From NCBI GenBank assembly GCA_035262705.1, contig DATFSI010000009.1:3-64002 (forward strand): DNA of 64,000 bases. The letters are read 5' to 3'. The notes under the pieces are model-generated. The model did not search any database. It saw nothing but the letters and a program-made list of their open reading frames with translations, and was not told the DNA's origin. Position 1 is the first letter of the stretch; every line of letters starts with the position of its first letter. Source of the stretch: Candidatus Acidiferrum sp. (GTDB lineage Bacteria > Acidobacteriota > Terriglobia > Acidiferrales > UBA7541). Below are positions 5,982 to 58,689 of the stretch, one piece after another. The position numbers and the translations under genes are program-made.

Positions 5982-8210
5982 ATGAAAGACCCGCAAATTG
6001 GGAAAGCAGTTCCTCGCAAAGAGGGGCGCGAGAAGGTGACCGGAAGCGCGCGCTATGTGGACGACCTGACGTTTCCAGGGATGATTCATGGCGTCACCGT
6101 GCGCAGCTCGATTGCGCGCGGAAGAATTCTCGGCATCCAGTTTGGCGAAGGAATTCCCTGGGACGAGTTCACGATTGTCACCGCCAAGGACATACCCGGT
6201 AAAAACTGTGTGGCTCTGCTGATTGAAGATCAGCCTTGCCTCGCCGACCAATTCGTCAATCATCCCGAAGAAGCGGTGGTTCTGCTGGCACATGCCGACA
6301 AATATCTGCTGGAAGAGGCACGGCGCGCAGTACGCATCGAAACGCAGCCATTGCCGCCGGTTTTTACCATCGAGGATTCGTTGGCGCGAAAGCAGGTGAT
6401 TTGGGTCGAGGACAATATCTTCAAGGCATATCAGGTGGAAAAAGGAAACGTAGATACGGCGTGGGAAGCCGCGGAATTCATCGTTGAGGGCGAGTACGAG
6501 ACGGGTGCACAGGAGCAACTCTACATCGAACCACAAGGCATGATTGCGCAGGCAGGCCCGGGCTCGCGCGTCACGGTGTGGGGTTCGCTGCAGTGTCCTT
6601 ACTATGTGCACAAGGCGCTGGTGCGATTGTTTGACCTGCCCAAGGAACAGGTGCGGGTGGTGCAGACGGAAACCGGCGGCGGGTTTGGCGGCAAGGAAGA
6701 GTACCCCTCGATGATCGCGGGGCACGCCGCGCTGCTGGCGTGGAAATCCGGTAAGCCGGTGAAGATTGTTTACGACCGCGCCGAGGACATGGCCGCGACC
6801 ACCAAGCGGCATCCCTCGCGTACCCGTCACCGCACGGGGATTTCGCGCGATGGAAAGCTCGTGGCCATGGAGATCGATTTCACTCTGGATGGCGGGGCTT
6901 ACGAAACGCTTTCGCCCGTAGTCTTGTCGCGAGGCACCATTCATGCGGCGGGGCCTTACTCCTGCCCCAACGTGCGCATTCGCAGCCGCGTGGTGGCCAC
7001 GAACGCTCCGCCCCATGGCGCGTTCCGCGGATTCGGCGCGCCGCAAAGTGTATTCGCCTTGGAACGCCATTTGGATCGCGTGGCCGCGGCGGTTGGGTTG
7101 ACGCCGGAAGAATTGCGCCGCCGGAATTTCATCCATGAGGGGGAAACGCTGGCGGTGAGCCAGGTGGTGCGCGAAAAGGTGCAGATGGACAAATTACTGG
7201 ACCGCGCGCTGGAGTTGAGCGGGTATCACGAAAAACGCAAGCGGTTTGCGACCGAGAATGCGCGCGGCCCAATCAAGCTGGGTATTGGCTTTGCCTCTTT
7301 CCTTCATGGAGCGGGATTCACGGGTTCGGGCGAGGAGTATCTGGCGTCTGAAGCATTGGTAACGGCGACGAGAGAAGGAAAAGTACACGTGCTGGCGGGC
7401 AGCACCGAGATGGGCCAAGGCACGAATACTATCTTTGCCCAAATCGCTGCCGACGCGCTGGGCCTAGATTGCCAGCAGATTGAGATCCTCCAGCCGGATA
7501 CGGCGCTGGTGCCCAACAGCGGGCCGACTGTCGCTTCGCGCACTACGATGATTGTCGGAAAGCTGGTGGAATCCGCGGCGTTAAGCATTCGCAAAACACT
7601 GCAAGATGCCGGTCTATTGAAGGCCGAGTACGGCTCGAAAGAATTCCAGGATGCGTGTTGTCGATACATCGAAAAGTTTGGCGCGCTGCAATCCTTGGTG
7701 AAATACCAGCACCCGCAGGACCTGCACTGGGACGATGGAACGTATCAGGGCGACGCTTATGGAGCGTACGCCTGGGCGGTTTATGTAGCGGAAGTTTCCG
7801 TGGACACGCGGACGGCGGAAGCACGCGTGGAAGATTTTGTGGCCGTGCAGGAAGTGGGGAAAGTGATTCATCCCGTGCTGGCTGCGGGACAAATTGAAGG
7901 TGGGGTGGCCCAGGGCATCGGCTTTGCGCTTTACGAAAATATCGTGTGGCAGGAAGGGCGCATGGCGAACGGCCAGATGACCAACTACATCATGCCCACT
8001 TCCATGGATGTGCCGAACATTCGCGTGTATTTCGAGGAGATTCCTTACGCGCGAGGCCCGGCTGGCGCAAAAGGTATCGGCGAACTGCCGCTGGACGGAA
8101 CCGCGCCGGCGATTGCCAACGCCATCGCGCATGCCACGGGAGCCGATGTGCGGGCAGTTCCGATGACGCCGGAAAAACTGATGGAATTGCTGGAGAGCGT
8201 GCATGCCTGA
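5982..8210 (+). CDS. Xanthine dehydrogenase molybdopterin-binding subunit
   Basis: GGGFGGK, AFRGFG, GPTVASR and KGIGE motifs; purine catabolism context; start at MKDPQIGK. Confidence 0.9.
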   Translation: MKDPQIGKAVPRKEGREKVTGSARYVDDLTFPGMIHGVTVRSSIARGRILGIQFGEGIPWDEFTIVTAKDIPGKNCVALLIEDQPCLADQFVNHPEEAVVLLAHADKYLLEEARRAVRIETQPLPPVFTIEDSLARKQVIWVEDNIFKAYQVEKGNVDTAWEAAEFIVEGEYETGAQEQLYIEPQGMIAQAGPGSRVTVWGSLQCPYYVHKALVRLFDLPKEQVRVVQTETGGGFGGKEEYPSMIAGHAALLAWKSGKPVKIVYDRAEDMAATTKRHPSRTRHRTGISRDGKLVAMEIDFTLDGGAYETLSPVVLSRGTIHAAGPYSCPNVRIRSRVVATNAPPHGAFRGFGAPQSVFALERHLDRVAAAVGLTPEELRRRNFIHEGETLAVSQVVREKVQMDKLLDRALELSGYHEKRKRFATENARGPIKLGIGFASFLHGAGFTGSGEEYLASEALVTATREGKVHVLAGSTEMGQGTNTIFAQIAADALGLDCQQIEILQPDTALVPNSGPTVASRTTMIVGKLVESAALSIRKTLQDAGLLKAEYGSKEFQDACCRYIEKFGALQSLVKYQHPQDLHWDDGTYQGDAYGAYAWAVYVAEVSVDTRTAEARVEDFVAVQEVGKVIHPVLAAGQIEGGVAQGIGFALYENIVWQEGRMANGQMTNYIMPTSMDVPNIRVYFEEIPYARGPAGAKGIGELPLDGTAPAIANAIAHATGADVRAVPMTPEKLMELLESVHA

Positions 8211-8694
8211 GGCGCTGCGCAGGATCCGCGTGCAATGCGTGATCAACGGCAAAGGGGTCTCGCTCGAAGCGTATCCCATGGCGCGATTGCTGGATGTGCT
8301 GCGGGAGGAAGCCGGGCTGACCGGCACAAAAGAAGGATGCGGTGAAGGCGAATGCGGCGCGTGCTCAATTGAGATGGACGGCGTGTTGGTGAATAGTTGC
8401 CTGGTTCCCGTGCTGCAGGCGGAAGGCGCAGTGATTCGAACGATTGAAGGCATGGCGGGCGCAGGGCAGCTGAGCGCGGTGCAGCAGGCGTTTCTCGCGC
8501 ACGGCGGGGCGCAATGCGGTATTTGCACGCCGGGCATGATTTTGGCGGCGGTGAACCTGCTTTCGCGCAACGCGCAGCCAACGGAGAGCGAAATCCGTGA
8601 AGGCTTGTCGGGCAATCTTTGCCGCTGCACGGGGTATACGAAGATTTTTGAATCGGTGATGGAAGCCTGCCGTTTGCTGGAGGTGGGCAAATGA
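8203..8694 (+). CDS. Xanthine dehydrogenase (2Fe-2S) subunit
   Basis: GTKEGCGEGECGACS and QCGICTPG...GNLCRCTGY motifs; overlaps the previous stop. Confidence 0.93.
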   Translation: MPEALRRIRVQCVINGKGVSLEAYPMARLLDVLREEAGLTGTKEGCGEGECGACSIEMDGVLVNSCLVPVLQAEGAVIRTIEGMAGAGQLSAVQQAFLAHGGAQCGICTPGMILAAVNLLSRNAQPTESEIREGLSGNLCRCTGYTKIFESVMEACRLLEVGK

Positions 8695-9554
8695 GGTCCT
8701 TCGTTCCGCAATATCGAATGGAGACACCGCGGAATCTTGCGGACGCGCTTGCGCGCATGGCGCGCGAGCCCGGCGTGTGGAGGCCCTTCGCCGGGGGAAC
8801 GGATTTGATGGTCTTGCTGGAAGCGGGGAAATTGCCGCACCGACAATTTTTGAGCATCTGGAAATTGCCCGAGCTGCGCGGGATTGCAGTGACCCCTGAA
8901 TTCGTAACGCTAGGGGCGTTGACGACTTACTCGGAAGTGCGGTGGCACGAGGTACTGCGGCGCGAATTTCCGTTGTTATGCCGTGCCGCGGCGGAAACCG
9001 GCAGCATTGCCACGCAGAACCGCGGCACGCTGGGCGGCAATATCGCGAATGCTTCGCCGGCGGCGGATTCGCCTCCGGCCTTGCTCGTTTACGACGCGGA
9101 ACTCGAGCTGGTCTCTGCGCGCGACGAGCGTTGGGTGGCGTTTCACGGCTTCTGGAAAGGCTATAAGAAACTTGAGATGCGCGACGACGAGTTGATTCGG
9201 CGTATTCGTTTACCGCGAAACAAAAACGGCTGGACGCAATTTTACCGTAAGGTGGGCTCGCGCCACGCGCAGGCTATTTCGAAAGTTTGCCTGGCGGGCA
9301 CGGCATTGCAAGAGTCCGGAAGCATCGCGGATGTGCGGATCGCGCTGGGCAGCGTGGCGCCGATCGTTTTGAGAGCGACCGAAACGGAAAAGATCTTACG
9401 CGGGCAAAAACTGACGGCGCAGATCGCTCACACAGCCGAAAAAGCACTGGCGCGGGAAATCACGCCTATAGACGACATTCGTTCGACCGCGCATTACCGG
9501 TTGCGCGTGGCACAAAATCTTCTCTGGGAATTCTGCGAGGTACTGGCCAGTTAG
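8691..9554 (+). CDS. Xanthine dehydrogenase FAD-binding subunit
   Basis: AGGTDL, QNRGTLGGNIANASPAADS motifs; ATGA overlap with the Fe-S subunit. Confidence 0.93.
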   Translation: MRSFVPQYRMETPRNLADALARMAREPGVWRPFAGGTDLMVLLEAGKLPHRQFLSIWKLPELRGIAVTPEFVTLGALTTYSEVRWHEVLRREFPLLCRAAAETGSIATQNRGTLGGNIANASPAADSPPALLVYDAELELVSARDERWVAFHGFWKGYKKLEMRDDELIRRIRLPRNKNGWTQFYRKVGSRHAQAISKVCLAGTALQESGSIADVRIALGSVAPIVLRATETEKILRGQKLTAQIAHTAEKALAREITPIDDIRSTAHYRLRVAQNLLWEFCEVLAS

Positions 9555-9560
9555 CGGAAG

Positions 9561-10958
9561 ATGCCTACTCATTCTCAAAGTTCAAGCGAGGCGCCGAACC
9601 TGGTTGTTCGTGGAAGGCGCGTGATTACTGCGGAGGGCGAACGGTCCGCTGCGATTCACATTCGCGAGAGAGTCATCGCGAAAGTCACTTCGTTTGATAA
9701 TGTCGTCGACGGCGGCCCGGTTTATGAAGCTGGGGATCGCGTGGTGATGCCTGGTGTGGTGGATACACACGTCCACATCAACGAGCCGGGGCGCACGGAA
9801 TGGGAGGGTTTTTCGACGGCCACGCGAGCGGCCGCAGCCGGCGGGATCACCACGCTTATCGAAATGCCGCTGAACAGCATCCCGGCGACAACCAGCGTTG
9901 GCGCATTTCAGGAAAAACTGGAAGCCACGCAGGGCAAGCTCTGGGTGGATACCGGATTTTGGGGCGGCGTGGTGCCTGGAAATTCGGCTGAGCTTCGCAG
10001 TTTGTGGGAAGTTGGCTGCTTCGGCTTCAAATGTTTTCTGGTGGAAAGTGGCGTGCCGGAATTCGCGCGAGCGAGCGAAAGCGATCTTCGCCTAGCTCTG
10101 CCGGAATTTGCGGAGATGGGCGTGCCGCTCCTGGCACACGCGGAAGTGCCTGGCCCGATCGACGAGGCAGCAAAACGCCGCAGCGCGAGTGACTCAGGAA
10201 AGTCGCATCAGACGTTGCTCGAGTCGCGTCCGCGCGCGGCGGAAAACGAAGCGATCGATCTTTTGTTGCGGCTCGGTGCGGAGTACGATGCACACATTCA
10301 TATCGTGCACCTTTCCTCTTCCGATGTAATTTCAGCGATTCAGCGCGCAAAGAAAGAGCGGGCAAAAGTGAGTGTGGAGACTTGCCCGCATTACTTAACG
10401 TTTGCTTCGGAGGAGATTTCTGATGGGGCGACGCAATTCAAATGCGCACCGCCGATTCGCGAACGCGCGAACCGCGAATGCCTTTGGGCAGCGTTGAGCG
10501 ATGGAACGATTGACATGATTGCGACCGACCATTCGCCCTGCCCTCCGGAAATGAAGCGGCTCGACAGCGGCGATTTTTTCGCGGCGTGGGGAGGAATCGC
10601 CTCGCTGCAGCTGAGCCTACCGGCGGTATGGACAGAAGCGCGGGCGCGTGGATTTTCGCCGGTGCATCTGGCGCAATGGCTTTGCGAAGGTCCGGCGCGG
10701 CTCGCCGGACTTGCAAAGAAAAAAGGTGTGATTGCGGTTGGCCATGACGCGGACTTGGTGATCTGGAATCCTGATGCGGCGTTCCGCGTGGACCCCGCGC
10801 AGCTCTACCATCGGCATAAAGTGACGCCCTATGCGGGGCGCGAGCTTCTGGGTATAGTCGAAGCCACATTTCTGCGCGGCAGGAAGATTTTCGAGCGAGG
10901 GGCGTTTTGCCCCGCACCCGAGGGCAGAGTCCTGCTGCGTGGCCAAGGCCAGGCATGA
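9561..10958 (+). CDS. allB: Allantoinase
   Basis: Amidohydrolase motifs DTHVHINEPGRTEWEGF, MPLNSIP, GFKCF, FKCAPPIR, TDHSPC. Confidence 0.93.
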   Translation: MPTHSQSSSEAPNLVVRGRRVITAEGERSAAIHIRERVIAKVTSFDNVVDGGPVYEAGDRVVMPGVVDTHVHINEPGRTEWEGFSTATRAAAAGGITTLIEMPLNSIPATTSVGAFQEKLEATQGKLWVDTGFWGGVVPGNSAELRSLWEVGCFGFKCFLVESGVPEFARASESDLRLALPEFAEMGVPLLAHAEVPGPIDEAAKRRSASDSGKSHQTLLESRPRAAENEAIDLLLRLGAEYDAHIHIVHLSSSDVISAIQRAKKERAKVSVETCPHYLTFASEEISDGATQFKCAPPIRERANRECLWAALSDGTIDMIATDHSPCPPEMKRLDSGDFFAAWGGIASLQLSLPAVWTEARARGFSPVHLAQWLCEGPARLAGLAKKKGVIAVGHDADLVIWNPDAAFRVDPAQLYHRHKVTPYAGRELLGIVEATFLRGRKIFERGAFCPAPEGRVLLRGQGQA

Positions 10959-12481
10959 AAGAGTTCACACAGCTTGCCGATCTTGCGGCCGAGCGTCTCG
11001 GCGGACGCGCGTTGGAAGCGAATGACGACTTCTTTGCGCCGAAGGAGAATCTGCTGAAAGAGTCCCAGCCGGTTTTCATCGCGGGGAAATACACTTCGCG
11101 CGGGAAGTGGATGGACGGCTGGGAGTCGCGGCGGCGCCGTACGCCGGGTTTCGACTGGTGCCTGATCCGACTGGGGCTGCCGGGAGTGATTCGCGGCGTG
11201 CTGGTGGATACGAGTTTTTTTACCGGCAACTACCCGGAACGGTTTTCCCTGGAAGGCTGTGACCTCGGCAAGGGCCATCCTTATAAAAACGAAAAACAGC
11301 GATTGTCCTCGGAAAAAACAGAGTGGGTTACGATTTTTCCCGAGACTCCCCTAAAGGGCGATACGTGGAATCTCTTCGGATGCGGATTCGCGCAGCGATT
11401 CACGCACTTGCGGTTCCGGATTTTTCCCGACGGTGGCGTGGCGCGGCTGCGCGTTTATGGAGAGGCGGTTCCTGATTTGGGGGCTATAGGCGCTCGCCGC
11501 GAAATCGACCTCGTGGCGGTGGAAAACGGCGGCAGCGCTGTGGCCGCGAGCGACCAACATTACGGCGCGCCGCGCAATCTGCTGATGCCGTATCGCGCGG
11601 AAAACATGGGCGACGGCTGGGAGACCAAGCGGCGGCGCGGGCCGGGCCACGATTGGGTGATCCTGAAACTTGGCGTGCCCGGCACAATCCGTCGGGTGAT
11701 TGTCGACACCGCGCATTTCAAGGGTAACTATCCGGATTCGTGTTCGCTGGAAGCGGCCTGCGTCGAGAATCAGATCGTAGATGCGACGAACGCGGATTCG
11801 CTGGTATGGGAAGAGGTGCTTCCCAACACCAAGCTGAGGGCCAACCATCGCCACGTGTTCGCCAAGCTCAAGCATGGACGCACAGCCACATATGTGCGCT
11901 TGCTGATTTTTCCCGACGGCGGCGTCAGCCGTCTGCGTCTTATCGGGCGGCCGGAAGTGGCCGCCGACCCAGCGAAATCACTAAACACCTTTGATCGTCT
12001 TGCAAAGCAGAAGGCAATCAAGATGCTGATGGACTGTTGCGGATCGCGGAAATGGGCGGAGCAGATGGTCGCGTACCGGCCATTTGTAGACGCCACTGAA
12101 TTATTCGCCGCGGCGGATAAAATCTGGTCCAAGTTGGAAGAAAAGGACTGGCTGGAGGCGTTCCGGCACCATCCGCCGATTGGTGGGAGGCACGCGAAGG
12201 CCAAGCAATCCACGACCGCCAGCCGTTGGTCGGCGAAAGAGCAATCCGCCGCGCAAAAAGCTTCGTCCGCGACGCTGGAGGCGCTGGCGACGGAGAACCA
12301 GCGTTACGCAGAGAAATTCGGCTATGTGTTTCTGATTTGCGCCACGGGAAAGAGCAGCGAAGAGATTTTGAGCGCGCTGCGGCGGCGCATGCCGAATGAT
12401 CGACAAACGGAATTGCGTACGGCTGCGGAAGAGCAGTGCAAGATCACGCGGCTGCGCCTGGAGAAACTACTCGCATCATGA
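10955..12481 (+). CDS. alc: Allantoicase fused to C-terminal OHCU decarboxylase (UraD) domain
   Basis: Two allantoicase repeats (NDDFFAP..MDGWESRRRR; MGDGWETKRRR; PDGGVARLR/PDGGVSRLR), then CCGS..W..M..RPF, HPPIG, FGYVFLICATG of UraD; start at MKEFTQL. Confidence 0.88.
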   Translation: MKEFTQLADLAAERLGGRALEANDDFFAPKENLLKESQPVFIAGKYTSRGKWMDGWESRRRRTPGFDWCLIRLGLPGVIRGVLVDTSFFTGNYPERFSLEGCDLGKGHPYKNEKQRLSSEKTEWVTIFPETPLKGDTWNLFGCGFAQRFTHLRFRIFPDGGVARLRVYGEAVPDLGAIGARREIDLVAVENGGSAVAASDQHYGAPRNLLMPYRAENMGDGWETKRRRGPGHDWVILKLGVPGTIRRVIVDTAHFKGNYPDSCSLEAACVENQIVDATNADSLVWEEVLPNTKLRANHRHVFAKLKHGRTATYVRLLIFPDGGVSRLRLIGRPEVAADPAKSLNTFDRLAKQKAIKMLMDCCGSRKWAEQMVAYRPFVDATELFAAADKIWSKLEEKDWLEAFRHHPPIGGRHAKAKQSTTASRWSAKEQSAAQKASSATLEALATENQRYAEKFGYVFLICATGKSSEEILSALRRRMPNDRQTELRTAAEEQCKITRLRLEKLLAS

Positions 12482-29676: not shown

Positions 29677-31896
29677 ATGAAAAACTTTTTTGCCGTCCTC
29701 TCCGTGACTTTCGCATTTTTTGCCTATTCCGCAAATTCCAAGGCTGTTCCGCAATCTTCGACTGATAACGCCCACTTGACCGGCACGCTGACCGATCCTT
29801 CCGGCGCAGCCGTCGCCGGAGCGCAAATCAGCGCGCAGGCCACCGGTTCGTCCGCACAGGTCAACGCAACTTCCGGCGCGGACGGTTCGTATTCGCTGAA
29901 CCTTCCGCCAGGGAGCTATCGTGTGCGTTTTGCGCGCACGTCGTTTGCCGCGCGCGAGATTAACGTGAGCCTGGCTGCCGGCGAATCCCGCGTGGTGAGC
30001 CTTCCCCTTGAACTCGAGCGACTATCCGAGAGCGTGGTGGTCACCCCGCAATCGCTTCCGGTTAGCGCGCAGCAGACCACAGTTCCTACCGACGTTATCT
30101 CCCGCGAGGTGATCGAGGACCGTCAGGCGGCTTCCCTGCCCGAGCTTTTGCAGTTCTCACCGGGCATCGCCATAGGCCGGACCGGACCGTTTGGCGGAAC
30201 CGCCTCAGTCTTCCTTAACGGCGGCAATTCGAACTTCACAAAGGTTCTTGTTGATGGTACGCCCATCAACCCACCGGGAAGTGCGGTGGATTTCTCCAGC
30301 GTTACCACCGAAAACATCGATAAAGTCGAAATCGTCCGCGGCCCCGAAAGCGCCATCTATGGCAGCGATGCCGTGGCCGGCGTCATCCAGCTGTTCACTC
30401 ACCAGGGTGAAACGCGGATTCCAGCTTTCGGCGCCTTTGCTGAAGGTGGCAACTTCGCTTCCGGCCGTGGGGGTGCGGACCTCAGCGGCCTTCTCGGCAA
30501 GTTCGATTATTCCGGCTCTGCCGCTTACTTCCACACGGACGGCCAAGGCCCGAACAACTACTTCGTGAACCGCACGCTCTCCGGGAATTTTGGCTACTCT
30601 TTTTCCGATACCAACCAACTGCACCTCTCGCTTCGTAACAACATGAGTGACGCCGGGATCCCCGGACAAACCGGACTTCCTCCCTCGCCTGGCGCAATGC
30701 CGGATCTCTTTACGGGTTACGTACAGCACATCTTTTCGGCCAATGCGCGATGGAACCTCACCAGCGGCCGCCACTGGCAGCATCAGCTGATGGGCACGGA
30801 GTCCTATACGCGGCAGCGGAGTTTTGCGAACCCGGGAGACGTCTTCCCCTTCAACACCATCCTGGAATTCAATCGGGCCGCGGCGAATGCGCGATCGAGC
30901 TACGTGTCGAGGAATTTCAGCGCCACGGCCGGCTACCAATACGAAGTGGAAAACGGAGGCATTACATTTGTGAGTCCCGGCCACTTGCGCCGCAACAATC
31001 AGGCCGGGTACCTCGACTTCCGCTATACGCCCCTTGCGCGCCTGACCCTCGATTTGGGAGTCCGCGCAGAAGCCAACGACAGCTTTGGCACGCGCGTGGT
31101 GCCCCGCATCGGCGGGTCGTATCTGCTGCACAACGGGAAGGGGTTTTTCGGCGATACACGCTACCGGGCTTTTTATGGACAAGGCATCAAGGAAGCGCGC
31201 TTCGATCAAACCTTTGGCACGGATCCTTGTTTCCCAGGAAATCCCGGCCTGAAACCGGAAGCCAGCAAAGGCTGGGCAACGGGCTTCGATCAGAAACTCG
31301 CCGCGGATCGGTGGAAGGTTTCCGCCGATTATTTCTACAGCCGCTTTTACGACATCGTCAGCTTCGCCGACTGCCAGGCCACCGGGCTCTGCCCAGTGCA
31401 AGTTGGTTGCCCGTTTGGCAACGGCACCTATTTCAACACCGACCTGGCGTTTGCGCGCGGCGTGAATTTCGTCTCCGAGTTTCGCTTCCGCAACTGGATT
31501 TTCGTCAATGGGAACTACACGTATGACGATACCCGCGTGGTCAAATCCCCCACGGTCGCGGATCCCGCGCTCATTCCGGGAAATCATTTGATACGACGCC
31601 CGGTAAATTCCGGTTCTTTGGGGTTGAACGTAGCGTATGCAAGGATCAACTGGAACTTCATCGGGTACTTTACCGGCGTGCGCACGGACAGCGATTTTTT
31701 GGGATTGGGGCTTACGAGCAATCCGGGCTATGCGCGTTTTGACATGGCCGCCAGCTACCACGTCACGCGCGGGGTTTTCTTCACCGGACGCGTCATCAAC
31801 CTCTTCGACAAACAGTATCAGGACGTGCTTGGGTTTCCCGAGCTGGGTCGCTACTACATGCTTGGACTGCGCTACGCATTCAGCGGGAGAGACTGA
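29677..31896 (+). CDS. btuB: TonB-dependent cobalamin receptor
   Basis: Signal peptide, plug motif IDKVEIVRGPESAIYGSDAVAGVI, C-terminal INLFDKQY..GRYY..GLRYAF; preceded by a B12 riboswitch. Confidence 0.88.
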   Translation: MKNFFAVLSVTFAFFAYSANSKAVPQSSTDNAHLTGTLTDPSGAAVAGAQISAQATGSSAQVNATSGADGSYSLNLPPGSYRVRFARTSFAAREINVSLAAGESRVVSLPLELERLSESVVVTPQSLPVSAQQTTVPTDVISREVIEDRQAASLPELLQFSPGIAIGRTGPFGGTASVFLNGGNSNFTKVLVDGTPINPPGSAVDFSSVTTENIDKVEIVRGPESAIYGSDAVAGVIQLFTHQGETRIPAFGAFAEGGNFASGRGGADLSGLLGKFDYSGSAAYFHTDGQGPNNYFVNRTLSGNFGYSFSDTNQLHLSLRNNMSDAGIPGQTGLPPSPGAMPDLFTGYVQHIFSANARWNLTSGRHWQHQLMGTESYTRQRSFANPGDVFPFNTILEFNRAAANARSSYVSRNFSATAGYQYEVENGGITFVSPGHLRRNNQAGYLDFRYTPLARLTLDLGVRAEANDSFGTRVVPRIGGSYLLHNGKGFFGDTRYRAFYGQGIKEARFDQTFGTDPCFPGNPGLKPEASKGWATGFDQKLAADRWKVSADYFYSRFYDIVSFADCQATGLCPVQVGCPFGNGTYFNTDLAFARGVNFVSEFRFRNWIFVNGNYTYDDTRVVKSPTVADPALIPGNHLIRRPVNSGSLGLNVAYARINWNFIGYFTGVRTDSDFLGLGLTSNPGYARFDMAASYHVTRGVFFTGRVINLFDKQYQDVLGFPELGRYYMLGLRYAFSGRD

Positions 31897-50410: not shown

Positions 50411-53400
50411 CTACAACGTCACGGGTTCGCGCGCCGCGGGAGGTTCCTTCTCGACGCCTTTCCATCCCACGGGACGCCCGCTTACGGCTTCTTTCACCGA
50501 GCGGAACAACACGATGTACATCAACTGACGGTAATAGAAGCGTTGCAGCAGCACCGGGACGAGCAGCGTCCAGTCCTCATGGCGCTCCAGCGCGAAAGCC
50601 ACCACGCAGGTCAAGACGTCAATGATCAGGAAGCCCAGGAAGAACACAACGGAGCGCTGCATGTCCGCGCTGGTCCAGAGATGTGGGATTTGCGTGATAT
50701 GCAGCCCGGCCAGCCCCCAAAGGAGCAGGCTACCGAGAAACAGCAGATCCAGGATCGGAGAAACCAGCGGCAGGGCAATCTGAAAAATAAAAATGTTGGG
50801 CAGGGCGATGAAGCCCAGCGTGCCGTACTTCGGGCGGAACACCGTCTCACCATGTTTCCAGAAAGATTGCAGCGTTCCGAACGTCCAGCGGAAGCGCTGG
50901 CGGATCAACTGGCCCGGCGTTTCCGGCGCTTCGGTCCAGGCGATCGCTTCTTCGTCGTAGGTAATGCGCCAACCCAAGCGGCGGATGGCGATGGTTAGGT
51001 CGGCGTCTTCGGCCACAGTGTCCGCGGTAATGCCTCCGGCGGCTTCGATGGCCTGCTTGCGCCAAGCGCCCAACGCGCCGGGGACGACAGTGATGCAGTT
51101 CAGCAGATCGAAGGCGCGCTTCTCCATGTTCTGGCTGGTGACGTATTCGAGGGCCTGCCAGCGCGTAAGCCAGCGCGAACGGTTGCCGACCTTGACGTTG
51201 CCGGCGACCGCGCCGACCTTAGGGTTGGAAAAATGGCGCAGCAGTTTGCGGATGGCGTTGGGCTCGATTTCCGTGTCCGCATCGATGGTTACGACAATTT
51301 CCGTCAGCGCGTGGCTCATGGCGTTGTTGAGCGCCGCCGCCTTGCCGCGGTTGGATTGGTGAATGATCTGCACGTGGACGTTACGGCCGAAATTGCTTTG
51401 CAGAAGCTCCAGGGTGCGGTCTTTCGAGCCGTCGTCCACGACGATCACGTGGATGTCCTCAAGATCGGAAAGCAGCACGGACTGCACCGTCTGCACAATC
51501 ACGCTTTCTTCGTTGTGCGCGGGAATCAGGACGGTGACGCCCGGCGGCGGCTCCGACAGCTTTGCCGTATCCGGGCGCAATTTTTCGAGGATGGCCAGCA
51601 GCCCTACGATGACTGCGCGCCCGCTGACCAGCACGATGCCGAGAATGAAAATAGTGGCAATGGCGAAGCGTGACCACTGAAAGATGCTGAAGATGAAACC
51701 GTCGGCGCGGGCCGCCAGGCGTTCCCGCAACGACAGCGGGACCATCAGGTCCGCCCTCTTCTTCCCCACCAGGTCGGCCACGGAAACGAATTCGTAACCT
51801 CGCGAGCGCAGCTCATCAATAATCAGCGGCAGCGCCTTCACCGTCTGCTCGCGTTCGCCACCCCCGTCGTGCAGCAACACGATGTTCCCGTTCTTGGCCT
51901 GGCGGAGCACATCGTCGGCAATTTCCTGCGCAGGGCGCTGCTTTTGATCGTCGGTCATGCGCCAATCGTCGGGATCGATCTTCTGGCCGACGATGATGTA
52001 GCCCAACTCCTGCGGGTAAGGAAGCTGTGCCACTTCTTCCGCGTATTCCGGCTGGTGGTCGATGCCGTAAGGCGGACGGAAGAGCAGCGACTTGACGCCC
52101 AGAGTGCTTTCTATCAGGCGCTGCGTGAGGTTGAGCTGCCATTGCACTTCGGTACGGCCGATCTGGTCGAACTTAGGATGCGTGAAGGTATGGTTCCCGA
52201 TTTCGTGGCCTTCGTTGTACTCGCGTTTTAGCAAGTCCGGAGCCTGGTTGGCTTGTTCCCCGATGACGAAAAAAATTCCGGGAACTTTCTTTTGCTTCAA
52301 AACATCCAGGATTTTTGGCGTCCATTGGCGATCCGGGCCATCGTCAAACGACAACACAATCTTGTTCTTGGCGGCCCCGATTTGGTCGATATCGTAGGAG
52401 AGCGGATAAGCTTCGTAATTTTCGTCGGTGATCTGATCGCTCGCAGCCTCGTAGGTAAAACTCCGGCGCCCTTGCTTGGGAGTATCGGTGATATGCCAGA
52501 TGTCGCCATCGCCTTCGAGGATCAGGTCGGGGCCAGGAGGGAGCTCCGCGAGTTTCGCGCGCACGGTGTCGTCGGGGCGCGTGGTATCCCAGATGGGCCA
52601 CAAGGAGGTGTCGGAAGAACCCAGTCGCCAGAGAGCGGTGCCCTGCACGCCGAGGCGCTCGCTGGCGCGCAGTTCGTTGTATGCGGTGACGGCGTCGAGC
52701 AGCCACACCTGGTGGGTGTGGTTCTGCTCATCTTCGTAGGAATAATGCGGGTTCAGGGAATCGGAATCGAATTCTATTTCGCTTTCCGATTCGTAAGCGT
52801 GCAGCAGCGCTTCCTGAATGCTGAATTCTTCCGCGTGCGGTGCTTCCTTTTTCGAGGTTTCCGTCCAGTCGTAGGCGTAATTCGCCACGCCCATCACGAT
52901 TTTTTGCGCAGGGACCACGTCGAGCACCTGGCGCATGTTTTCCGTGAACCAGTCCTGCGCGGCGATGGGACCTGGGGGCGAGGTCAGCCAGTGCTGGTCG
53001 TAGTTCATCAGGATGATGGCATCGGTGGTCTTGCCAAAGAATTCGTAATCGTAGGCGTCGTCGCGGGCGGGCAGCGCGATCATGAGCTTCAGCCCCACGG
53101 CGTGCAGCGACGGCGCGAATTGCCCGATGAACTCGCGGAAATTGGCCTGGCTTTTGTCCGGCACTTCCTCGAAATCCACGACGATGCCGGCTTGTTTGGC
53201 AAGCACGGCGTATTGCGTGACGTCGGAAAGCAGCCTACTCCGCGAGGCGGGATTGGCCAGCAACTCCGCCATTTCCTTCACGCGCCAAACCTGGCCGTCA
53301 TAGTTGTTCAGCAGGCCCATCATGGGAAGTTCCTGGGGAGGTGTCAGCGAGCGCATCCACTGGTGCAGTTTGTCCTGCTGCAGGCGCGCCAGCGCTTCCA

Positions 53401-53845
53401 TGGGAGAGACCTGCACGGTCTGGTTGCTTTCGTAATCCACCACGGTGATGGCCCCATCTGGGGTGACCGCGTGCAACTGCTCGGGCATGAGCAGGTCGAT
53501 GTCCTTGTAATGCTTTTTCAGCGAGGCCAGGCTGTTGGGATCCCAGCTCACGAAAAACGCGGCGCGCAGCGGATCATAGGCCGCCGGAATGTTGCCGATG
53601 TTGGCGACGCGTTTGTGGCGCCCTTCGCGCAGTGCCACGGGTTTAAGCAGTTTTTTCTTGATCGAATGGTAGACCGGCCGCGTATCGGGCAGCAGCGAGG
53701 AAGGCAGTTCCACGGTCCGGATAATGGTGAAGAAGAAGTACACGAGCAGCAGGGTCAGCATCGCGCCGCTGAGTTCCAGCATGCGCCGCGTGCGTCGCCA
53801 GCGGACTTTCTCCGCGTCGTAAAAAATGGGTTTTCGTTCTTTCAT
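50411..53845 (-). CDS. GH18-like + CE4 polysaccharide deacetylase + GT2 synthase fusion protein
   Basis: GIVVDFEE and MNYDQH (GH18-like); SFDDGP, HTFTH, FRPPYG, LLHDGG (CE4); IPAHNE, DDGS.D, DADT, AED, QRFRW (GT2); start at MKERKP. Confidence 0.9.
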   Translation of the reverse strand: MKERKPIFYDAEKVRWRRTRRMLELSGAMLTLLLVYFFFTIIRTVELPSSLLPDTRPVYHSIKKKLLKPVALREGRHKRVANIGNIPAAYDPLRAAFFVSWDPNSLASLKKHYKDIDLLMPEQLHAVTPDGAITVVDYESNQTVQVSPMEALARLQQDKLHQWMRSLTPPQELPMMGLLNNYDGQVWRVKEMAELLANPASRSRLLSDVTQYAVLAKQAGIVVDFEEVPDKSQANFREFIGQFAPSLHAVGLKLMIALPARDDAYDYEFFGKTTDAIILMNYDQHWLTSPPGPIAAQDWFTENMRQVLDVVPAQKIVMGVANYAYDWTETSKKEAPHAEEFSIQEALLHAYESESEIEFDSDSLNPHYSYEDEQNHTHQVWLLDAVTAYNELRASERLGVQGTALWRLGSSDTSLWPIWDTTRPDDTVRAKLAELPPGPDLILEGDGDIWHITDTPKQGRRSFTYEAASDQITDENYEAYPLSYDIDQIGAAKNKIVLSFDDGPDRQWTPKILDVLKQKKVPGIFFVIGEQANQAPDLLKREYNEGHEIGNHTFTHPKFDQIGRTEVQWQLNLTQRLIESTLGVKSLLFRPPYGIDHQPEYAEEVAQLPYPQELGYIIVGQKIDPDDWRMTDDQKQRPAQEIADDVLRQAKNGNIVLLHDGGGEREQTVKALPLIIDELRSRGYEFVSVADLVGKKRADLMVPLSLRERLAARADGFIFSIFQWSRFAIATIFILGIVLVSGRAVIVGLLAILEKLRPDTAKLSEPPPGVTVLIPAHNEESVIVQTVQSVLLSDLEDIHVIVVDDGSKDRTLELLQSNFGRNVHVQIIHQSNRGKAAALNNAMSHALTEIVVTIDADTEIEPNAIRKLLRHFSNPKVGAVAGNVKVGNRSRWLTRWQALEYVTSQNMEKRAFDLLNCITVVPGALGAWRKQAIEAAGGITADTVAEDADLTIAIRRLGWRITYDEEAIAWTEAPETPGQLIRQRFRWTFGTLQSFWKHGETVFRPKYGTLGFIALPNIFIFQIALPLVSPILDLLFLGSLLLWGLAGLHITQIPHLWTSADMQRSVVFFLGFLIIDVLTCVVAFALERHEDWTLLVPVLLQRFYYRQLMYIVLFRSVKEAVSGRPVGWKGVEKEPPAAREPVTL

Positions 53846-53942: not shown

Positions 53943-55391
53943 ATGAAGCGAATTTTCTCCAGCCCCATTTCGGCCCTGGTTGCCGGCGCGGCTTTGCGGT
54001 TGCTGTTTGCGCTGAAATTCCCCGGCGGCTCCGGGGACACGGTTATATACGATCAACTAGCAACGAACTGGCTGCAGCACGGCAAATACGCGATGGACAT
54101 CGCCGGACAGCCGGTTCCTGTGGACATTCGCATGCCCGGGTACCCCGCATTTCTTGCCCTGGTGTATATGCTGACGGGCCACACTGGTGAAGCCGCGCGC
54201 CGCGCAGTCATGTTCGCGCAGATCTTTGTGGATCTCGGCACGTGCGTGGTGATTGCCGCTCTGGCTGCGCTTCTTGCGTCGTTGTGGATGGAAAAAACGG
54301 AATCCCAACGAACGTTTCGTATTGCACTGTGGCTTGCGGCGCTGTGTCCTTTGACCGCCAATTATGTGGCCGTGCCGCTCACGGAAAGCTGGGCCGTTTT
54401 TTTCGCGGCGCTGGCCACATTGCTGCTGGTTGCGGTCCTCTTCCTTGCCGCCGGCATCTGGCTGCCCCTTCTGGAACGCCGTGGGGACCGCGAGTATTGG
54501 CTCGCGGCGGGTGCATCGGGTTTTGTGGTTGGCTTGGGCACTCTTTTTCGGCCGGAGACGCCTCTGCTGCTGGCGATCGCATTTTTTGCATTGGCGTTTG
54601 TGTTGTTACGCCGGCGGCATCCCGAACAACTGCTCCTTTCCATCACGTTGATGATCTTCAGCGCCGCTCTGCCCTTGGCGCCTTGGGCTATCCGCAACGT
54701 GATTACGCTGCACGAATTCCAGCCCCTCGCGCCTAAAGACGCCATGCTTCCCGGCGAACTCGACCCAAGAGGATTTATGGCCTGGGAGCGGACGTGGTTG
54801 TATCGCGTGCGCGACTGCTATCTAGTGCCGTGGAAGCTCAACGACGAAGCCATCCTCATCGACGACATCCCGCCCTCGGCGTTCGACACACCCGAAGAGC
54901 GCGAACGCGTTGCCGCGGTGCTCGAGACGTACAACGATGAACTGACGCTCACAGCGGAGGAAGATGCCGTGTTTGCGCAACTGGCCCGCGAACGTACCGC
55001 CCGCCACCCGCTGCGTACCTACGTGACGATCCCCCTGCGGCGCGCCGTGCGCATCTGGTTTACCCCGCGCATCGAACTCCTTCCCAATATCTCCGGGCAT
55101 GTGTTTCCTCTTGCTTATATGCGGGAAGAGGACCCGGTGGACCAGCGGGTGACGATTTTCTTTTTCCTGCTCAACATTGTTTACGTCGGGCTAGGGATTT
55201 GGGGCCTGTGGCGGCTTTGCAAGTATCCCGCCGCGCGCGTGACAGTGTTCTTTTTTGTTGCGTATCTCGTTGTGCGCACGGCGTTTCTCACTACACTGGA
55301 AACGCCGGAACCCCGCTATGTGCTGGCGTGTTTCCCTGCTCTGCTGGCGCTGGGAGCCCAGGTCTTCCACCGGTTCCCCCGGCGTTCCTAA
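53943..55391 (+). CDS. GT-C fold (GT39/PMT-like) membrane glycosyltransferase
   Basis: GD..IY..LA.N, R.PGYP.FLA, LTE, LFRPE motifs; many transmembrane segments; start at MKRIFSS. Confidence 0.72.
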   Translation: MKRIFSSPISALVAGAALRLLFALKFPGGSGDTVIYDQLATNWLQHGKYAMDIAGQPVPVDIRMPGYPAFLALVYMLTGHTGEAARRAVMFAQIFVDLGTCVVIAALAALLASLWMEKTESQRTFRIALWLAALCPLTANYVAVPLTESWAVFFAALATLLLVAVLFLAAGIWLPLLERRGDREYWLAAGASGFVVGLGTLFRPETPLLLAIAFFALAFVLLRRRHPEQLLLSITLMIFSAALPLAPWAIRNVITLHEFQPLAPKDAMLPGELDPRGFMAWERTWLYRVRDCYLVPWKLNDEAILIDDIPPSAFDTPEERERVAAVLETYNDELTLTAEEDAVFAQLARERTARHPLRTYVTIPLRRAVRIWFTPRIELLPNISGHVFPLAYMREEDPVDQRVTIFFFLLNIVYVGLGIWGLWRLCKYPAARVTVFFFVAYLVVRTAFLTTLETPEPRYVLACFPALLALGAQVFHRFPRRS

Positions 55392-55593
55392 CGATAAACA
55401 CCGGTCTATTGCTCCTGCCAAGGTGGGTGGCGAAGATAAGGGCGACAAGCGCCCGGTCCCCGTTGCATGCTATCCTCGGTCTTTCCGAAGTAGCCCCAAC
55501 CCAGATGCTTCGGTGCTTTCGCTTTCCGGTGAGCACGCAGGATGACCCTGTTGCTGCCGGCCTGAATTCGAACTCATTCGAACGGGGTGCACC

Positions 55594-57147
55594 ATGAGCG
55601 AGCCATGGAAACAATGGGAAGGCCAGACTGTCGACGGAAAATTCTCCCTGCGGCAATTTCTGGGAAGCACGCACCATAGCGCGGTTTTCCTGGCGCAGAC
55701 CGTCGAGCCACAACCCAAAAACGCCGCCATCAAGTTTCTCTTCTCGGGCGCGTCCAACGCGGACACGCAGCTGGCGCTTTGGAAACGCGCCGCGCATCTC
55801 TCTCACCCCAATCTTCTGGCCATTTACGATTGCGGTCGGTGCCGCCTGGGGGACAGCGATTTGCTTTATGTGGTGATGGAACACGCCGAGGAAAATCTTG
55901 GCGACGTCCTTCCGCAGCGGCCTCTTTCGCCGGAAGAGACCCGCGATTTTCTGGAGCCAGCTCTGGATGTGCTGGTGTATCTGCACGGCAAAGGACTCGC
56001 GCACGGGCATTTAAAGCCTTCCAACTTGCTGGCCACCCGGGATTGCCTGAAGCTTTCAAGCGACGCAGTCCTGACGATTGGCGCGGGCGCGCAATTCGAC
56101 CGCGAGGCGGACGCCTATGACGCTCCGGAATTGAGGACAGCGGCGGTTACCGCGAAGGCCGATGCGTGGTCCCTTGGCGCGACTTTGGTGGAGGCACTGA
56201 CGCAGGAGCCTCCTTTTGCGCCGCCGCAAGCCGGCGATCCGGCCATCCCGGATTCCCTGCCAGAAGAGTTTCGCGAAATTGCGGGTCACGCACTGAGGCG
56301 GCATGAGGCGCAGCGCTGGTCCATCGGCGAAATTGCCGCGCGGCTGAATCTGGCACCGCTGGCTGCGGCCGCAGTGGCCAGCGTTGCCGCGCCAGCCGTT
56401 CCCGCGGCGGTGATTTCTCCGCTCAGCGTGCCCCTGGCCACGGAGCCTGCCGTGCCGCTTGCGAAGTTGCCCGCCGCTCCGGAGATTTCTCCCCGCCGCC
56501 CCGCGCAAGCGGCAAAAAGAAGTTCCTCGCGCTCTTCGTTCGATTATTTCGTGCCCGCAGTTCTGGTCACGGCGGTGATCATCGGCTTGATTTTCGCGGT
56601 GCCCAAGATTTTCAATTTTCAGCGACCGTCCGGGACGCCGACACCTCAGGTGGCAAGCGAGGCAAAGATGCAGACAGCGCCGGGGCCTGCAGCAGAAGCA
56701 AATCCGGTGAAGCCCGAACCTGCTGTCAGAAAGCCGGTCAGCCGGCCGGCTGAGCCGCCAACGCCCACTACTGCCACGGCGGTTCTTAGAACGGACTCCT
56801 CCAGTTCCACTCCGGTACGCGCAAAAAGCGCTGACGAGGTCGAGGGACGCGGACAGGTTCTCGACCAGGTGTTGCCGAAACCCGCCCCGAAAGCTCTGGA
56901 AACGATTCAAGGCACGGTGCGCGTGGTGGTAAAAGTTCAAGTGGAAGCGTCGGGGAGTGTGAGCGACGCGGAGCTCGATTCACCAGGGCCAAGCAAGTAT
57001 TTCGCAGACCTCTCGGAAAAAGCGGCCCGGCAGTGGCAGTTTGCGGGCGCGGAAAGCGACGGGCACAGCGTGCCCAGCGCGTGGCTGATTCGTTTTGAGT
57101 TTTCGCCGTCCGGCGTGCGCGCCTTCCCGCAACAGACCGCGCCGTGA
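55594..57147 (+). CDS. Protein kinase-like (degenerate) domain - TM - Pro-rich linker - TonB C-terminal domain
   Basis: AAIK, HPNLL.IYD, YVVMEH, HGHLKPSNLL, YDAPE, D.WSLGATL; TM FVPAVLVTAVIIGLIFAV; C-terminal GTVRVVVKVQVEASGSV..AARQWQF. Confidence 0.8.
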   Translation: MSEPWKQWEGQTVDGKFSLRQFLGSTHHSAVFLAQTVEPQPKNAAIKFLFSGASNADTQLALWKRAAHLSHPNLLAIYDCGRCRLGDSDLLYVVMEHAEENLGDVLPQRPLSPEETRDFLEPALDVLVYLHGKGLAHGHLKPSNLLATRDCLKLSSDAVLTIGAGAQFDREADAYDAPELRTAAVTAKADAWSLGATLVEALTQEPPFAPPQAGDPAIPDSLPEEFREIAGHALRRHEAQRWSIGEIAARLNLAPLAAAAVASVAAPAVPAAVISPLSVPLATEPAVPLAKLPAAPEISPRRPAQAAKRSSSRSSFDYFVPAVLVTAVIIGLIFAVPKIFNFQRPSGTPTPQVASEAKMQTAPGPAAEANPVKPEPAVRKPVSRPAEPPTPTTATAVLRTDSSSSTPVRAKSADEVEGRGQVLDQVLPKPAPKALETIQGTVRVVVKVQVEASGSVSDAELDSPGPSKYFADLSEKAARQWQFAGAESDGHSVPSAWLIRFEFSPSGVRAFPQQTAP

Positions 57148-58284: not shown

Positions 58285-58689
58285 TTACTTCTTGCTTTGC
58301 GAGAAAGGCGAAAGCACGGTGCGCGCCTCGGGATGCTTTGGCGACCAGTCTTCCGGGGGAAATGCCACACGCCAGAAACCGGGGCGCGTCTCGGAAAATT
58401 CCAAGCCCACTTCGGCTTTGCCGGAACGCACCGGACCGAGGAAGGCCACGTGGCATTCCTGCTCTTCCTTGGTGATGTTGTGCTGGAGGTGAACCTTGCT
58501 GCCACTGGTCACGCGCGCCTGGAGAAGCACCAGGGCGCCATGCGCGTTGATGGCTAGCGTGGCGGTTTCCTCTTCGAAATTCTTGCCTTGCGAATCGGCC
58601 CCGCGCAGGCGCACGGAAACCTGCATCAATACGCGCTGGCTGCGGCGGCGGGGACCGGGATGCGTGTAACCATTCGGAGACTGACCCAT
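58285..58689 (-). CDS. PilZ domain protein
   Basis: RRRSQR motif followed by beta-barrel pattern (TLAINAHGALV, VGLEF). Confidence 0.75.
   Translation of the reverse strand: MGQSPNGYTHPGPRRRSQRVLMQVSVRLRGADSQGKNFEEETATLAINAHGALVLLQARVTSGSKVHLQHNITKEEQECHVAFLGPVRSGKAEVGLEFSETRPGFWRVAFPPEDWSPKHPEARTVLSPFSQSKK

Follow-up and report, generated by a model that had tools for sequence, protein, structure and literature searches.

A pseudokinase-like domain joined through one membrane helix to a TonB C-terminal fold in Acidobacteriota: a candidate trans-envelope coupler

Background

The Acidobacteria rank with the most abundant bacteria of soil, and hardly any work has been done on their signalling. 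Here we analysed a gene at positions 55594-57147 of a stretch of 64,000 nucleotides from Candidatus Acidiferrum sp. (contig DATFSI010000009.1); this whole stretch is referred to below as the window. The predicted product, of 517 amino acid residues, joins a Hanks-type kinase fold with altered catalytic motifs to a TonB C-terminal (TonB-C) domain, with a single transmembrane (TM) helix in between. All protein residue numbers given below refer to this product. An earlier note, made from the letters of the window alone, had proposed that the protein reports the occupancy of TonB-dependent receptors (TBDRs) through nucleotide-dependent scaffolding. We examined the two folds, the conservation of the altered motifs, the region upstream of the gene and the gene context across the family, and then weighed this proposal against several others. 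The altered motifs were found to be fixed across a large family in Acidobacteriota, and we tentatively suggest that the protein is a non-catalytic coupler across the cell envelope.

The gene and the layout of its product

The translation contains LGSTHHSAVF, NAAIKF, SHPNLL, LAHGHLKPSNLL, CLKLSSDAVL, AYDAPE and ADAWSLG, and a gene call identical to the open reading frame (ORF) of the window is present on a public soil-metagenome contig. We modelled the full-length protein with AlphaFold2, using an alignment of 31 orthologues as input. In the model, residues 1-255 form a confident kinase fold (predicted local distance difference test (pLDDT) mostly 80-93), residues 316-339 form a helix and residues 421-517 form a confident alpha/beta domain; disorder was predicted at residues 262-313 (pLDDT <50) and 341-420 (pLDDT about 30-37). 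The parts of the gene are listed below, together with the evidence for each, which includes the ratio of nonsynonymous to synonymous substitution rates (dN/dS) described in a later section.

55594..57147, + strand: pseudokinase-TM-TonB_C gene, complete, 517 residues and stop, ATG start (ORF list)
55594..56358, + strand: kinase-fold domain, PknB-like, predicted to be cytoplasmic, residues 1-255 (Pfam, PDB sequence match, Foldseek, pLDDT, dN/dS)
56359..56538, + strand: juxtamembrane linker, Ala/Pro-rich, predicted to be cytoplasmic, residues 256-315 (predicted disordered; identity 0.20, dN/dS 0.20)
56539..56613, + strand: single TM helix, residues 316-340 (AlphaFold2 helix, hydropathy)
56614..56850, + strand: tether, Ala/Pro/Ser/Thr-rich, predicted to be periplasmic, residues 341-419 (predicted disordered; dN/dS 0.30)
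56851..57144, + strand: TonB C-terminal-fold domain, predicted to be periplasmic, residues 420-517, alpha1-beta1-beta2-alpha2-beta3-beta4 (Pfam, PDB profile, Foldseek)

The hydrophobic segment of the translation is FDYFVPAVLVTAVIIGLIFAVPKIF, and hydropathy analysis found one such segment in 143 of 151 family members. The number of Lys and Arg residues is higher on the N-terminal flank of the TM helix than on the C-terminal flank (3.2 vs 2.2), and an N-terminal signal peptide is absent, which fits a topology with the kinase domain inside and the TonB-C domain outside (N-in/C-out). The product thus fits a bitopic inner-membrane protein, with a predicted cytoplasmic kinase domain and a periplasmic TonB-C domain. 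The anatomy itself, namely a kinase fold, a linker, one TM helix, a tether and a TonB-C fold, is near certain. The motifs that the earlier note had quoted for a Hanks-type fold (HGH, KLSSD and GSTHHS among them) are all found in the translation and could be aligned with PknB, and its TM helix, Pro-rich spacer and TonB C-terminal domain are supported by AlphaFold2, Pfam and Foldseek.

The kinase-fold domain

Pfam Pkinase (PF00069) matched residues 21-209 (E=1.2e-17, 64.7 bits vs a cut-off of 31.7) and was recognised in 31 of 31 family members. The best sequence match of the N-terminal domain in the PDB was PknB of Mycobacterium tuberculosis, and PknB kinase domains also came first when the whole model was compared with the PDB by Foldseek (target-normalised TM-score 0.71-0.75). 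Motif positions were assigned by residue-by-residue alignment to M. tuberculosis PknB. Residues were then counted column by column in 151 divergent representatives (37-57% identity) and, as a separate set, in 84 GTDB species genomes. The motifs lie in the window as follows.

55663..55680, + strand: degenerate Gly-rich loop, G24-S-T-H-H-S29, aligned to GxGxxG of PknB
55732..55734, + strand: beta3 (VAIK) Lys, K47, kept (K in 147 of 151 representatives and 81 of 84 reference genomes)
56002..56025, + strand: catalytic loop, H137-G-H-L-K-P-S-N144, with H137-G138-H139 aligned to H-R-D
56050..56064, + strand: K153-L-S-S-D157, which replaces the beta8 strand and DFG, with S156-D157-A158 aligned to D-F-G

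Position 139, that of the catalytic Asp of HRD, is occupied by His in 73 of the 151 representatives, by Arg in 52, by Ser in 8, by Gln in 4 and by Asp in 4. Over both sets together, the catalytic Asp is replaced by His or Arg in about 85-90% and is Asp in only 3-6%. At position 138 (HRD Arg), Gly is found in 116 of the 151, and the triplet in the 84 genomes reads HGH in 46, HGR in 10, HSH in 7, and HSR, HTR and HGD in 5 each. The site of the DFG Asp (position 156) holds S, T, A, I or G across the representatives, and an Asp (D157) is located one residue to its C-terminal side (shift +1) in 146 of them; KLSSD-type motifs occur in nearly all of the 84 reference genomes. The Gly-rich loop has the family consensus G-G-S-[DE]-H-S, in which G2 and G3 are lost. 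No conserved alphaC Glu was found in the PknB alignment, the 151 representatives or the 84 genomes, and W63 is conserved there instead. The residues that are kept include, besides K47, the catalytic-loop Asn N144 (149 of 151 representatives and 84 of 84 reference genomes), the catalytic-loop Lys K141 (present in the window and mostly retained across the family), the adenine-pocket residues V31, A45 and L/M146, and the C-lobe scaffold of the APE Glu E179, alphaF D190-x-W-S-x-G and R241.

The domain therefore has the beta3 Lys and lacks the HRD Asp, a DFG Asp in register, a GxGxxG loop and an alphaC Glu. By the operational definition of a kinase fold without at least one of the VAIK Lys, the HRD Asp and the DFG Asp, it qualifies, on its aligned motifs, as a predicted pseudokinase. 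In the 31 orthologues, HGH, KLSSD, K47, PSN, YDAPE and DxWSLG were all invariant. The earlier note had named the alternative that homologues mostly retain HRD and DFG and that the copy in the window is merely decaying. We found instead that the altered HRD and DFG are fixed in the 31 orthologues, the 151 representatives and the 84 genomes. Since this fixation across orthologues is accompanied by purifying selection, the dead motifs are, as judged from the alignments, a selected state across the family and not decay.

In 5 of the 84 genomes, which make up a subclade (L027, L029, L031, L052 and L060), the loop reads H-G-D, with the catalytic Asp, yet the DFG site reads S-S-D. This suggests that the family may have descended from a non-RD kinase, and the subclade would be either a relic of an active ancestor or a reversion. 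We also considered His139 as a substitute catalytic base, and rejected it: within the family, position 139 switches between His and Arg, which makes such a base unlikely there.

K47, N144 and D157 correspond to the residues that hold the ATP phosphates and Mg, and they are kept without the catalytic base; this pattern would fit nucleotide-dependent scaffolding. Another explanation of the same residues is an atypical active enzyme, in which migrated residues would carry out phosphotransfer, or which would have another chemistry, such as the AMPylation or glutamylation of SelO and SidJ. Non-kinase chemistry of kinase folds is already known (bioRxiv 10.1101/2021.04.13.439722), K47, N144 and D157 are conserved at >=96% with K141 mostly kept, and the H-G-D subclade has the catalytic Asp in the manner of non-RD kinases. 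However, the variation of position 139 among H, R, S and Q leaves no single alternative base conserved, the Gly-rich loop is without G2 and G3 and is Gly-less in several close relatives, W63 takes the place of a conserved alphaC Glu, and the Asp is out of register with DFG. We thus regard an active enzyme as improbable.

The TonB C-terminal domain, the membrane helix and the tether

A TM helix and TonB_C were present in 151 of 151 representatives, and residues 420-517 aligned without gaps. On the whole protein, Pfam TonB_C (PF03544) matched residues 437-504 just above its threshold (E=3e-5, 24.8 bits vs a cut-off of 24.6); the isolated domain scored 28.7 bits, and 29 of 31 family members were recognised. 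NCBIfam TIGR01352 (tonB_Cterm) scored 27.4 vs a cut-off of 27.1, and the TonB model NF008082 gave a weak match that spanned the linker and the C-terminal domain. When a sequence profile of the C-terminal domain was compared with the PDB, the top 11 matches were all TonB, from several species. A separate model of residues 413-517 had a pLDDT of 86, and its 12 best matches by Foldseek were all TonB or FusB C-terminal domains, of which the best was 8rd6 (the C-terminal domain of Salmonella TonB; TM-score 0.78, root-mean-square deviation 2.0 A, 91 columns). The C-terminal domain thus adopts the TonB-C fold that the earlier note had read from the letters. The core residues of TonB_C are conserved (G440, G454, F470, W481, F483, W497 and F501). 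A profile search with TonB_C only, for other architectures, returned just short fragments of the same family.

A YP motif that precedes alpha1 is a defining feature of the TonB family, and the TM helix of canonical TonB carries a conserved motif that includes His20. In the family studied here, the YP motif is absent: the Y-P of Salmonella and Escherichia coli TonB aligns to residues 430-431, which are mostly V-S, and P-A in the window. Only P428, just before the aligned YP positions, is invariant. The equivalent of Q160 of E. coli TonB is not conserved in the family, and the TM helix contains no His in 136 of 151 members. The tether has a median length of 76 residues (range 26-135) and consists to a large part of Ala (19%), Pro (17%), Ser (13%) and Thr (8%).

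These features bear on two further explanations. The protein might be an energy-transducing paralogue of TonB that works inside-out, with its TM helix coupled to ExbB/ExbD and the pseudokinase as a regulatory appendage that tunes or localises it. Such a paralogue would account for the canonical order of TM helix, Pro-rich linker and TonB_C, for the annotation as 'TonB family protein' by PGAP and JGI, and for the weak NF008082 match over the linker and domain. However, identity in the TM helix is 0.26 and the His is missing from most members, some tethers have just 26 residues, TonB proteins generally have no cytoplasmic domain (PMC8262864), and ExbB/ExbD are not conserved neighbours, as no neighbour family is conserved over 84 loci. 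We consider this explanation decidedly unlikely.

Alternatively, the TonB-C-like domain could bind peptidoglycan or another periplasmic structure and not TonB boxes, so that the protein would be an envelope anchor or sensor comparable to PASTA kinases or SjdR. The TonB-like SjdR has a non-transport, cell-wall-related role (PMC8262864), tethers of 26 residues suit a reach to the peptidoglycan better than to the outer membrane, and a core role in the envelope would be in line with the wide conservation of one copy per genome. On the opposite side, the analysis detected no signature of peptidoglycan binding, the surroundings of the gene contain no conserved cell-wall genes, and SjdR itself is without a true TonB-like periplasmic domain (PMC8262864). 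The chance of such an anchor is, in our estimation, slim.

Distribution and selection

More than 1,700 homologues were found by shared words, the best 120 of which were all full-length, with 53-78% identity, and an exhaustive search gave 956 clusters at 50% identity (E<=1e-30). A scan of one genome per GTDB species gave at least 522 relatives. The best 80 of these were from 80 different assemblies, nearly all labelled as Acidobacteriota, with labels that include Acidoferrales, Terriglobales, Acidobacteriaceae, Terracidiphilus, Sulfotelmatobacter and Bryobacteraceae. The family is restricted to Acidobacteriota, and the genomes examined each had one copy. All DNA runs in which the version of the window occurs are soil metagenomes. 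Public names of the protein are only 'TonB family protein' (PGAP, JGI) or 'protein kinase' (e.g. HKM68118.1 and HXJ13048.1), and NCBIfam has no model specific to the family.

Several contigs of metagenome-assembled genomes (L006, L010, L011, L013, L022, L034, L055 and L064) carry the gene under other taxon labels, namely Limnocylindrales, Baltobacteraceae, Methylomirabilota, Eisenbacteria, Verrucomicrobiia, Alphaproteobacteria or Cybelea. L006, L010, L011 and L013 share a syntenic block with Acidoferrum contigs, in which the neighbours are 83-93% identical. Because the flanking genes are 84-93% identical to those of the Acidoferrum contigs, the labels outside Acidobacteriota, or the binning of these contigs, are probably wrong.

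We computed dN/dS between the window and the contig L002. The ratio was 0.13 in the kinase domain, 0.07 in TonB_C, 0.10 in the TM helix and 0.20-0.30 in the linkers. Mean pairwise identity was 0.47 in both the kinase domain and TonB_C, 0.26 in the TM helix and about 0.20 in the linkers. The two folded domains are therefore equally conserved and under purifying selection, and the TM helix and linkers are not conserved in sequence. Within the clade that shares gene order with the window, the pseudokinase domain has 57-62% identity, vs 92-93% for citrate synthase, 83-87% for a glycosyltransferase family 2 (GT2) fusion and 78-88% for a PilZ ORF. The pseudokinase thus evolves much faster than those neighbours within the clade, still under purifying selection.

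The upstream promoter/leader element

A gap of 202 nt lies upstream of the gene. Within it, a block of about 90 nt is nearly invariant among genomes that are saturated at synonymous sites. The following features were found there.

55409..55437, + strand: putative sigma-70-type promoter, TTGCTC at 55409-55414, 17-nt spacer, GAAGAT at 55432-55437 (as read from the alignments)
55430..55517, + strand: conserved gene-specific upstream element (nhmmer, leader alignments)
55584..55589, + strand: Shine-Dalgarno-like GGGGTG, 4 nt before the ATG (G(G/A)GGTG nearly invariant across the 36 aligned leaders)

With nhmmer, the upstream element was found in 39 distinct loci in addition to the window. In every case it lay on the + strand at a distance of 128-180 nt from the downstream ATG, and a search of both strands over 1.7 Mb gave no further occurrence. 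It is also present in clades with entirely different, non-syntenic upstream genes. The loci in which it was listed are L002-L040, L048, L061, L073, L081 and L082; from L041 onward, where the loci are more distant, it could not be detected except in these last five.

At the putative -10 site, other clades have TGnGAGAAT, which resembles an extended -10, and the A and T positions of the hexamer are nearly invariant. A simple scan of the + strand for promoters and terminators gave nothing above the expectation from shuffled sequence, and the putative promoter was not flagged by it. The -10-like hexamer is followed by AGCGCC-C[GA]GCCCCn-GGCGCCTG, which forms an inverted repeat of 5 bp around a conserved loop rich in C (GCGCC-N8/9-GGCGC; at 55449-55466 in the window, with one mismatch). 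A second motif, CCAGCCC..CAGACGCC, is located 3' of the inverted repeat. In the consensus structure, the 5-bp stem alone survives, with one compensatory change and three wobble changes. A larger leader RNA structure was predicted on 11 close sequences, and it was rejected after being lost in a broader alignment. No Rfam family matched in or around the gene.

We read the upstream element as the putative promoter of the gene itself, followed by what may be a 5'-terminal RNA hairpin or a DNA operator. Because the promoter/leader element travels with the gene across synteny contexts, it shows the gene to be, at the level of prediction, independently transcribed and specifically regulated.

Genomic neighbourhood

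In five genomes, the gene order is a GH18-deacetylase-GT2 fusion (-), a 482-residue membrane protein (+), the pseudokinase gene (+), a BNR protein (-), a small PilZ-like ORF (-), citrate synthase (-) and pirin (+). Among the 85 loci tested, this order was found in the 14 closest only and was absent from all 70 more distant ones. When 4,478 ORFs were clustered all-vs-all, every neighbour family was limited to 14 of 84 loci at most, if the antisense ORFs of the gene are set aside. Recurrent neighbours in other clades were an HAD hydrolase, a DNA glycosylase, aconitase subunits, a flavoprotein and an acyl-CoA dehydrogenase. No linked sigma or anti-sigma genes were found among the conserved neighbours of the loci examined. 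Another kinase lies within 10 kb of the gene in only 2 of 85 loci, and elsewhere in the window there is neither another kinase nor a second TonB_C gene. The gene thus behaves as a conserved stand-alone gene, with no linked receptor, kinase or operon partner.

The adjacent genes of the closest clade might have indicated that the protein is a local regulator of an exopolysaccharide locus (the GT2 fusion, the 482-residue membrane protein and the PilZ protein), and the order from the GT2 fusion to citrate synthase is indeed conserved in 14 loci. However, the neighbours in the 70 more distant loci are unrelated housekeeping genes, the presence of citrate synthase and pirin in the block points to general genomic collinearity and not to an operon, and the gene is accompanied by its own promoter/leader wherever that element is found. 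We therefore rejected the link over the 85 loci, as synteny is confined to the closest clade, and a role of this kind is hardly credible.

TBDRs are the partners that the earlier note had favoured. In that explanation, the protein is an outside-in sensor of receptor occupancy, independent of FecIR, in which TonB-C binds TonB boxes and the pseudokinase reports. The TonB-C fold and its conserved core residues speak for it, the median tether of 76 residues is long enough to span the periplasm, and the genome of the window encodes TBDRs of the CarboxypepD_reg type. The window does hold two TBDRs, as the note had stated, but at 1494-5243 (-) and 29677-31896 (+), that is, 50 kb and 24 kb from the gene, and TBDR-like genes lie within 10 kb of the gene in only 5 of 85 loci. 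No partner gene is conserved in 84 loci, neither the YP motif nor the equivalent of E. coli Q160 is conserved, and a single copy per genome without receptor linkage argues against a sensor dedicated to one receptor. Of the earlier proposal, then, the nucleotide-dependent scaffolding is in keeping with the pattern of K47, N144 and D157, and the reporting of receptor occupancy lacks both a gene link and the YP motif; we regard a sensor of this type as unlikely.

Other observations were made on the genes of the window. The receptor at 1494-5243 (-) is an outer-membrane protein of 1,249 residues with CarboxypepD_reg and an OMP_b-brl_4 barrel (E=1.6e-195), a weak TonB_dep_Rec match and no Plug match at 1e-5; it is a giant TBDR-like barrel of a type typical of Acidobacteria. 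The genes at 50411-53845 (-) and 53943-55391 (+) form a divergently transcribed pair. The former encodes a triple fusion of 1,144 residues, in which a polysaccharide deacetylase is combined with a GH18-like domain and a PgaC/NodC-like GT2 synthase; this suggests that a polymer resembling poly-N-acetylglucosamine or chitin may be made, deacetylated and trimmed by one protein. The latter encodes the 482-residue multi-TM protein, which has no Pfam family and matches the LA_3751/3752 putative glycosyltransferases weakly. The ORF of 134 residues at 58285-58689 (-), unannotated by earlier gene calls, contains a PilZ domain (PF07238, 23.4 bits vs a cut-off of 22.5) and shows 78-90% identity across the syntenic clade, above that of the BNR neighbour; it may be a receptor for cyclic di-GMP near polysaccharide genes. 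The sole interruption of the block is in L002, in which a DDE transposase (DDE_Tnp_1_4; 10843-12225 (-)) lies between the BNR gene and the PilZ-like ORF. At 5859-12481 (+), the window has a purine-catabolism cluster with a xanthine-dehydrogenase-type molybdopterin subunit and an amidohydrolase; within it, 10907-12481 is an unusual single ORF with two allantoicase repeats fused to an OHCU decarboxylase.

Proposed function

We tentatively propose, at a probability a little short of even, that the protein is a non-catalytic trans-envelope coupler, possibly nucleotide-binding, of a kind resembling GltJ of Myxococcus. A partner in the outer membrane or periplasm would offer an exposed strand, to which the TonB-C domain would dock by beta-strand augmentation; a protein bearing a TonB box is the most obvious candidate for this partner. 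In the cytoplasm, a second partner, which could be an active Hanks-type kinase or another effector, would dock onto the pseudokinase as a conformational platform that nucleotide may gate. Such a coupler would resemble both Myxococcus GltJ and the receptor pseudokinases that signal allosterically. We infer, and do not observe, the direction of signalling and the choice of signalling over tethering or scaffolding.

Several points weigh against this proposal. The lack of a YP motif and the borderline Pfam score leave TonB-box binding as only a candidate function of the C-terminal domain. The tethers of 26 residues found in some members are probably too short for the outer membrane. In several close relatives within the clade of the window, the loop has no Gly at all (ASTEFN, ANTNHS), and this further decay weakens the case for nucleotide binding by the copy in the window. 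The retention of K47, N144 and D157 could equally point to some catalytic activity. The gene context points to no partner on either side of the membrane, and no RNA runs with the gene were listed.

A bolder version of the coupler is that the family constitutes a new class of cell-surface signalling, with a TonB-like probe hard-wired to a nucleotide-binding, non-catalytic kinase fold; this we consider rather unlikely. Engagement at the outer membrane would then give an allosteric cytoplasmic signal of the pseudokinase-kinase type, or the reverse. The system would be core to Terriglobia and independent of extracytoplasmic function (ECF) sigma/anti-sigma pairs and two-component systems, and the gene-specific leader would add a dedicated regulatory layer.

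The family has no name, despite its large size, its ancient presence in the phylum and the purifying selection that acts on it. The Hanks-kinase fold and the TonB C-terminal domain have each been studied well, and their union in this family is a combination not described in the literature searched. If the coupler model is true, allosteric pseudokinase signalling, known from eukaryotic receptors, would be extended to the Gram-negative envelope, and TonB-like proteins would do more than energise transport, a view that is emerging from GltJ and SjdR. The family is also tractable, as both domains are small and were predicted with high confidence.

Comparison with known systems

The closest parallel in overall plan is GltJ (AgmX) of the Agl-Glt gliding machinery of Myxococcus xanthus, in which a single TM helix separates a cytosolic region from a flexible region that leads to a periplasmic TonB-C domain, and which serves as a non-enzymatic, switch-bearing structural component and scaffold of a trans-envelope machine (PMC11135422). 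Both proteins have a cytosolic effector domain, a TM helix, a disordered linker and TonB-C, and the resemblance is in plan only. The cytosolic part of GltJ is a ZnR and GYF module that binds MglA-GTP, whereas that of the window protein is a kinase fold. GltJ is encoded with the Agl-Glt machinery and works in it, whereas the window family is without conserved neighbours. The AgmX/PglI C-terminal model NF033768 matched the window protein below threshold (E=0.098, 12.8 bits vs a cut-off of 40).

Canonical TonB of E. coli, Salmonella and Pseudomonas shares with the window protein the C-terminal fold (TM-score 0.64-0.78), a Pro-rich periplasmic linker and a single N-in TM helix. The window protein differs in its cytoplasmic N-terminal extension of 315 residues, which TonB generally lacks (PMC8262864). 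Further differences of the family are the TM helix without His, the replaced YP, the lack of conserved linkage to ExbBD and the borderline Pfam score. Receptor kinases of the PknB type give the best sequence and fold match of the N-terminal domain and have the same receptor-kinase topology. L33, which is mutated in the PknB L33D and L33E entries of the PDB, is kept in 115 of 151 family members. Unlike PknB, the family has neither the catalytic Asp, the HRD Arg, DFG, the Gly-rich loop nor the alphaC Glu, and its extracytoplasmic part is TonB_C, in contrast to PASTA in PknB.

The Fec system, which consists of a receptor with an N-terminal signalling domain, the anti-sigma factor FecR and an ECF sigma factor, offers a conceptual likeness, as FecA-FecR-FecI also provides a trans-envelope route from a TBDR to the cytoplasm. 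Its proteins are entirely different, and no sigma/anti-sigma genes are linked to the window family.

Seven families of pseudokinases have been described among bacterial serine/threonine kinases, ActPs1-3 (including MviN), GLW, CP1, DYD and DLHK, all of which substitute the VAIK Lys (bioRxiv 10.1101/2025.01.12.632604). A scaffold role is known for the membrane pseudokinases EssB/YukC and MviN (PMC12599244). The window family shares with the seven families and with EssB/YukC a kinase fold with degraded catalytic motifs. It differs from the seven in keeping the VAIK Lys in 97% and losing the HRD Asp instead. Neither TonB nor Acidobacteria is mentioned in bioRxiv 10.1101/2025.01.12.632604 or PMC12599244. 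Because it keeps the Lys, loses the HRD Asp, belongs to a lineage of Acidobacteriota and has TonB_C as its partner domain, the window family fits none of the seven, from which it is set apart by their descriptions. Its pattern of motif loss, in which the Lys is kept, the catalytic Asp is lost and an Asp is shifted, is by description unlike that of all seven catalogued families.

No description of a fusion of a kinase to TonB_C was found in the literature searched, the coverage of which was not exhaustive, and the combination is probably already present in domain-architecture databases. Soil bacteria commonly have kinase folds fused to sensor domains of various kinds. The window protein may thus be placed as a receptor-like bacterial pseudokinase or, equally, as a TonB-like protein with a cytoplasmic effector domain, and in either case it belongs among known kinds of protein and is not categorically new.

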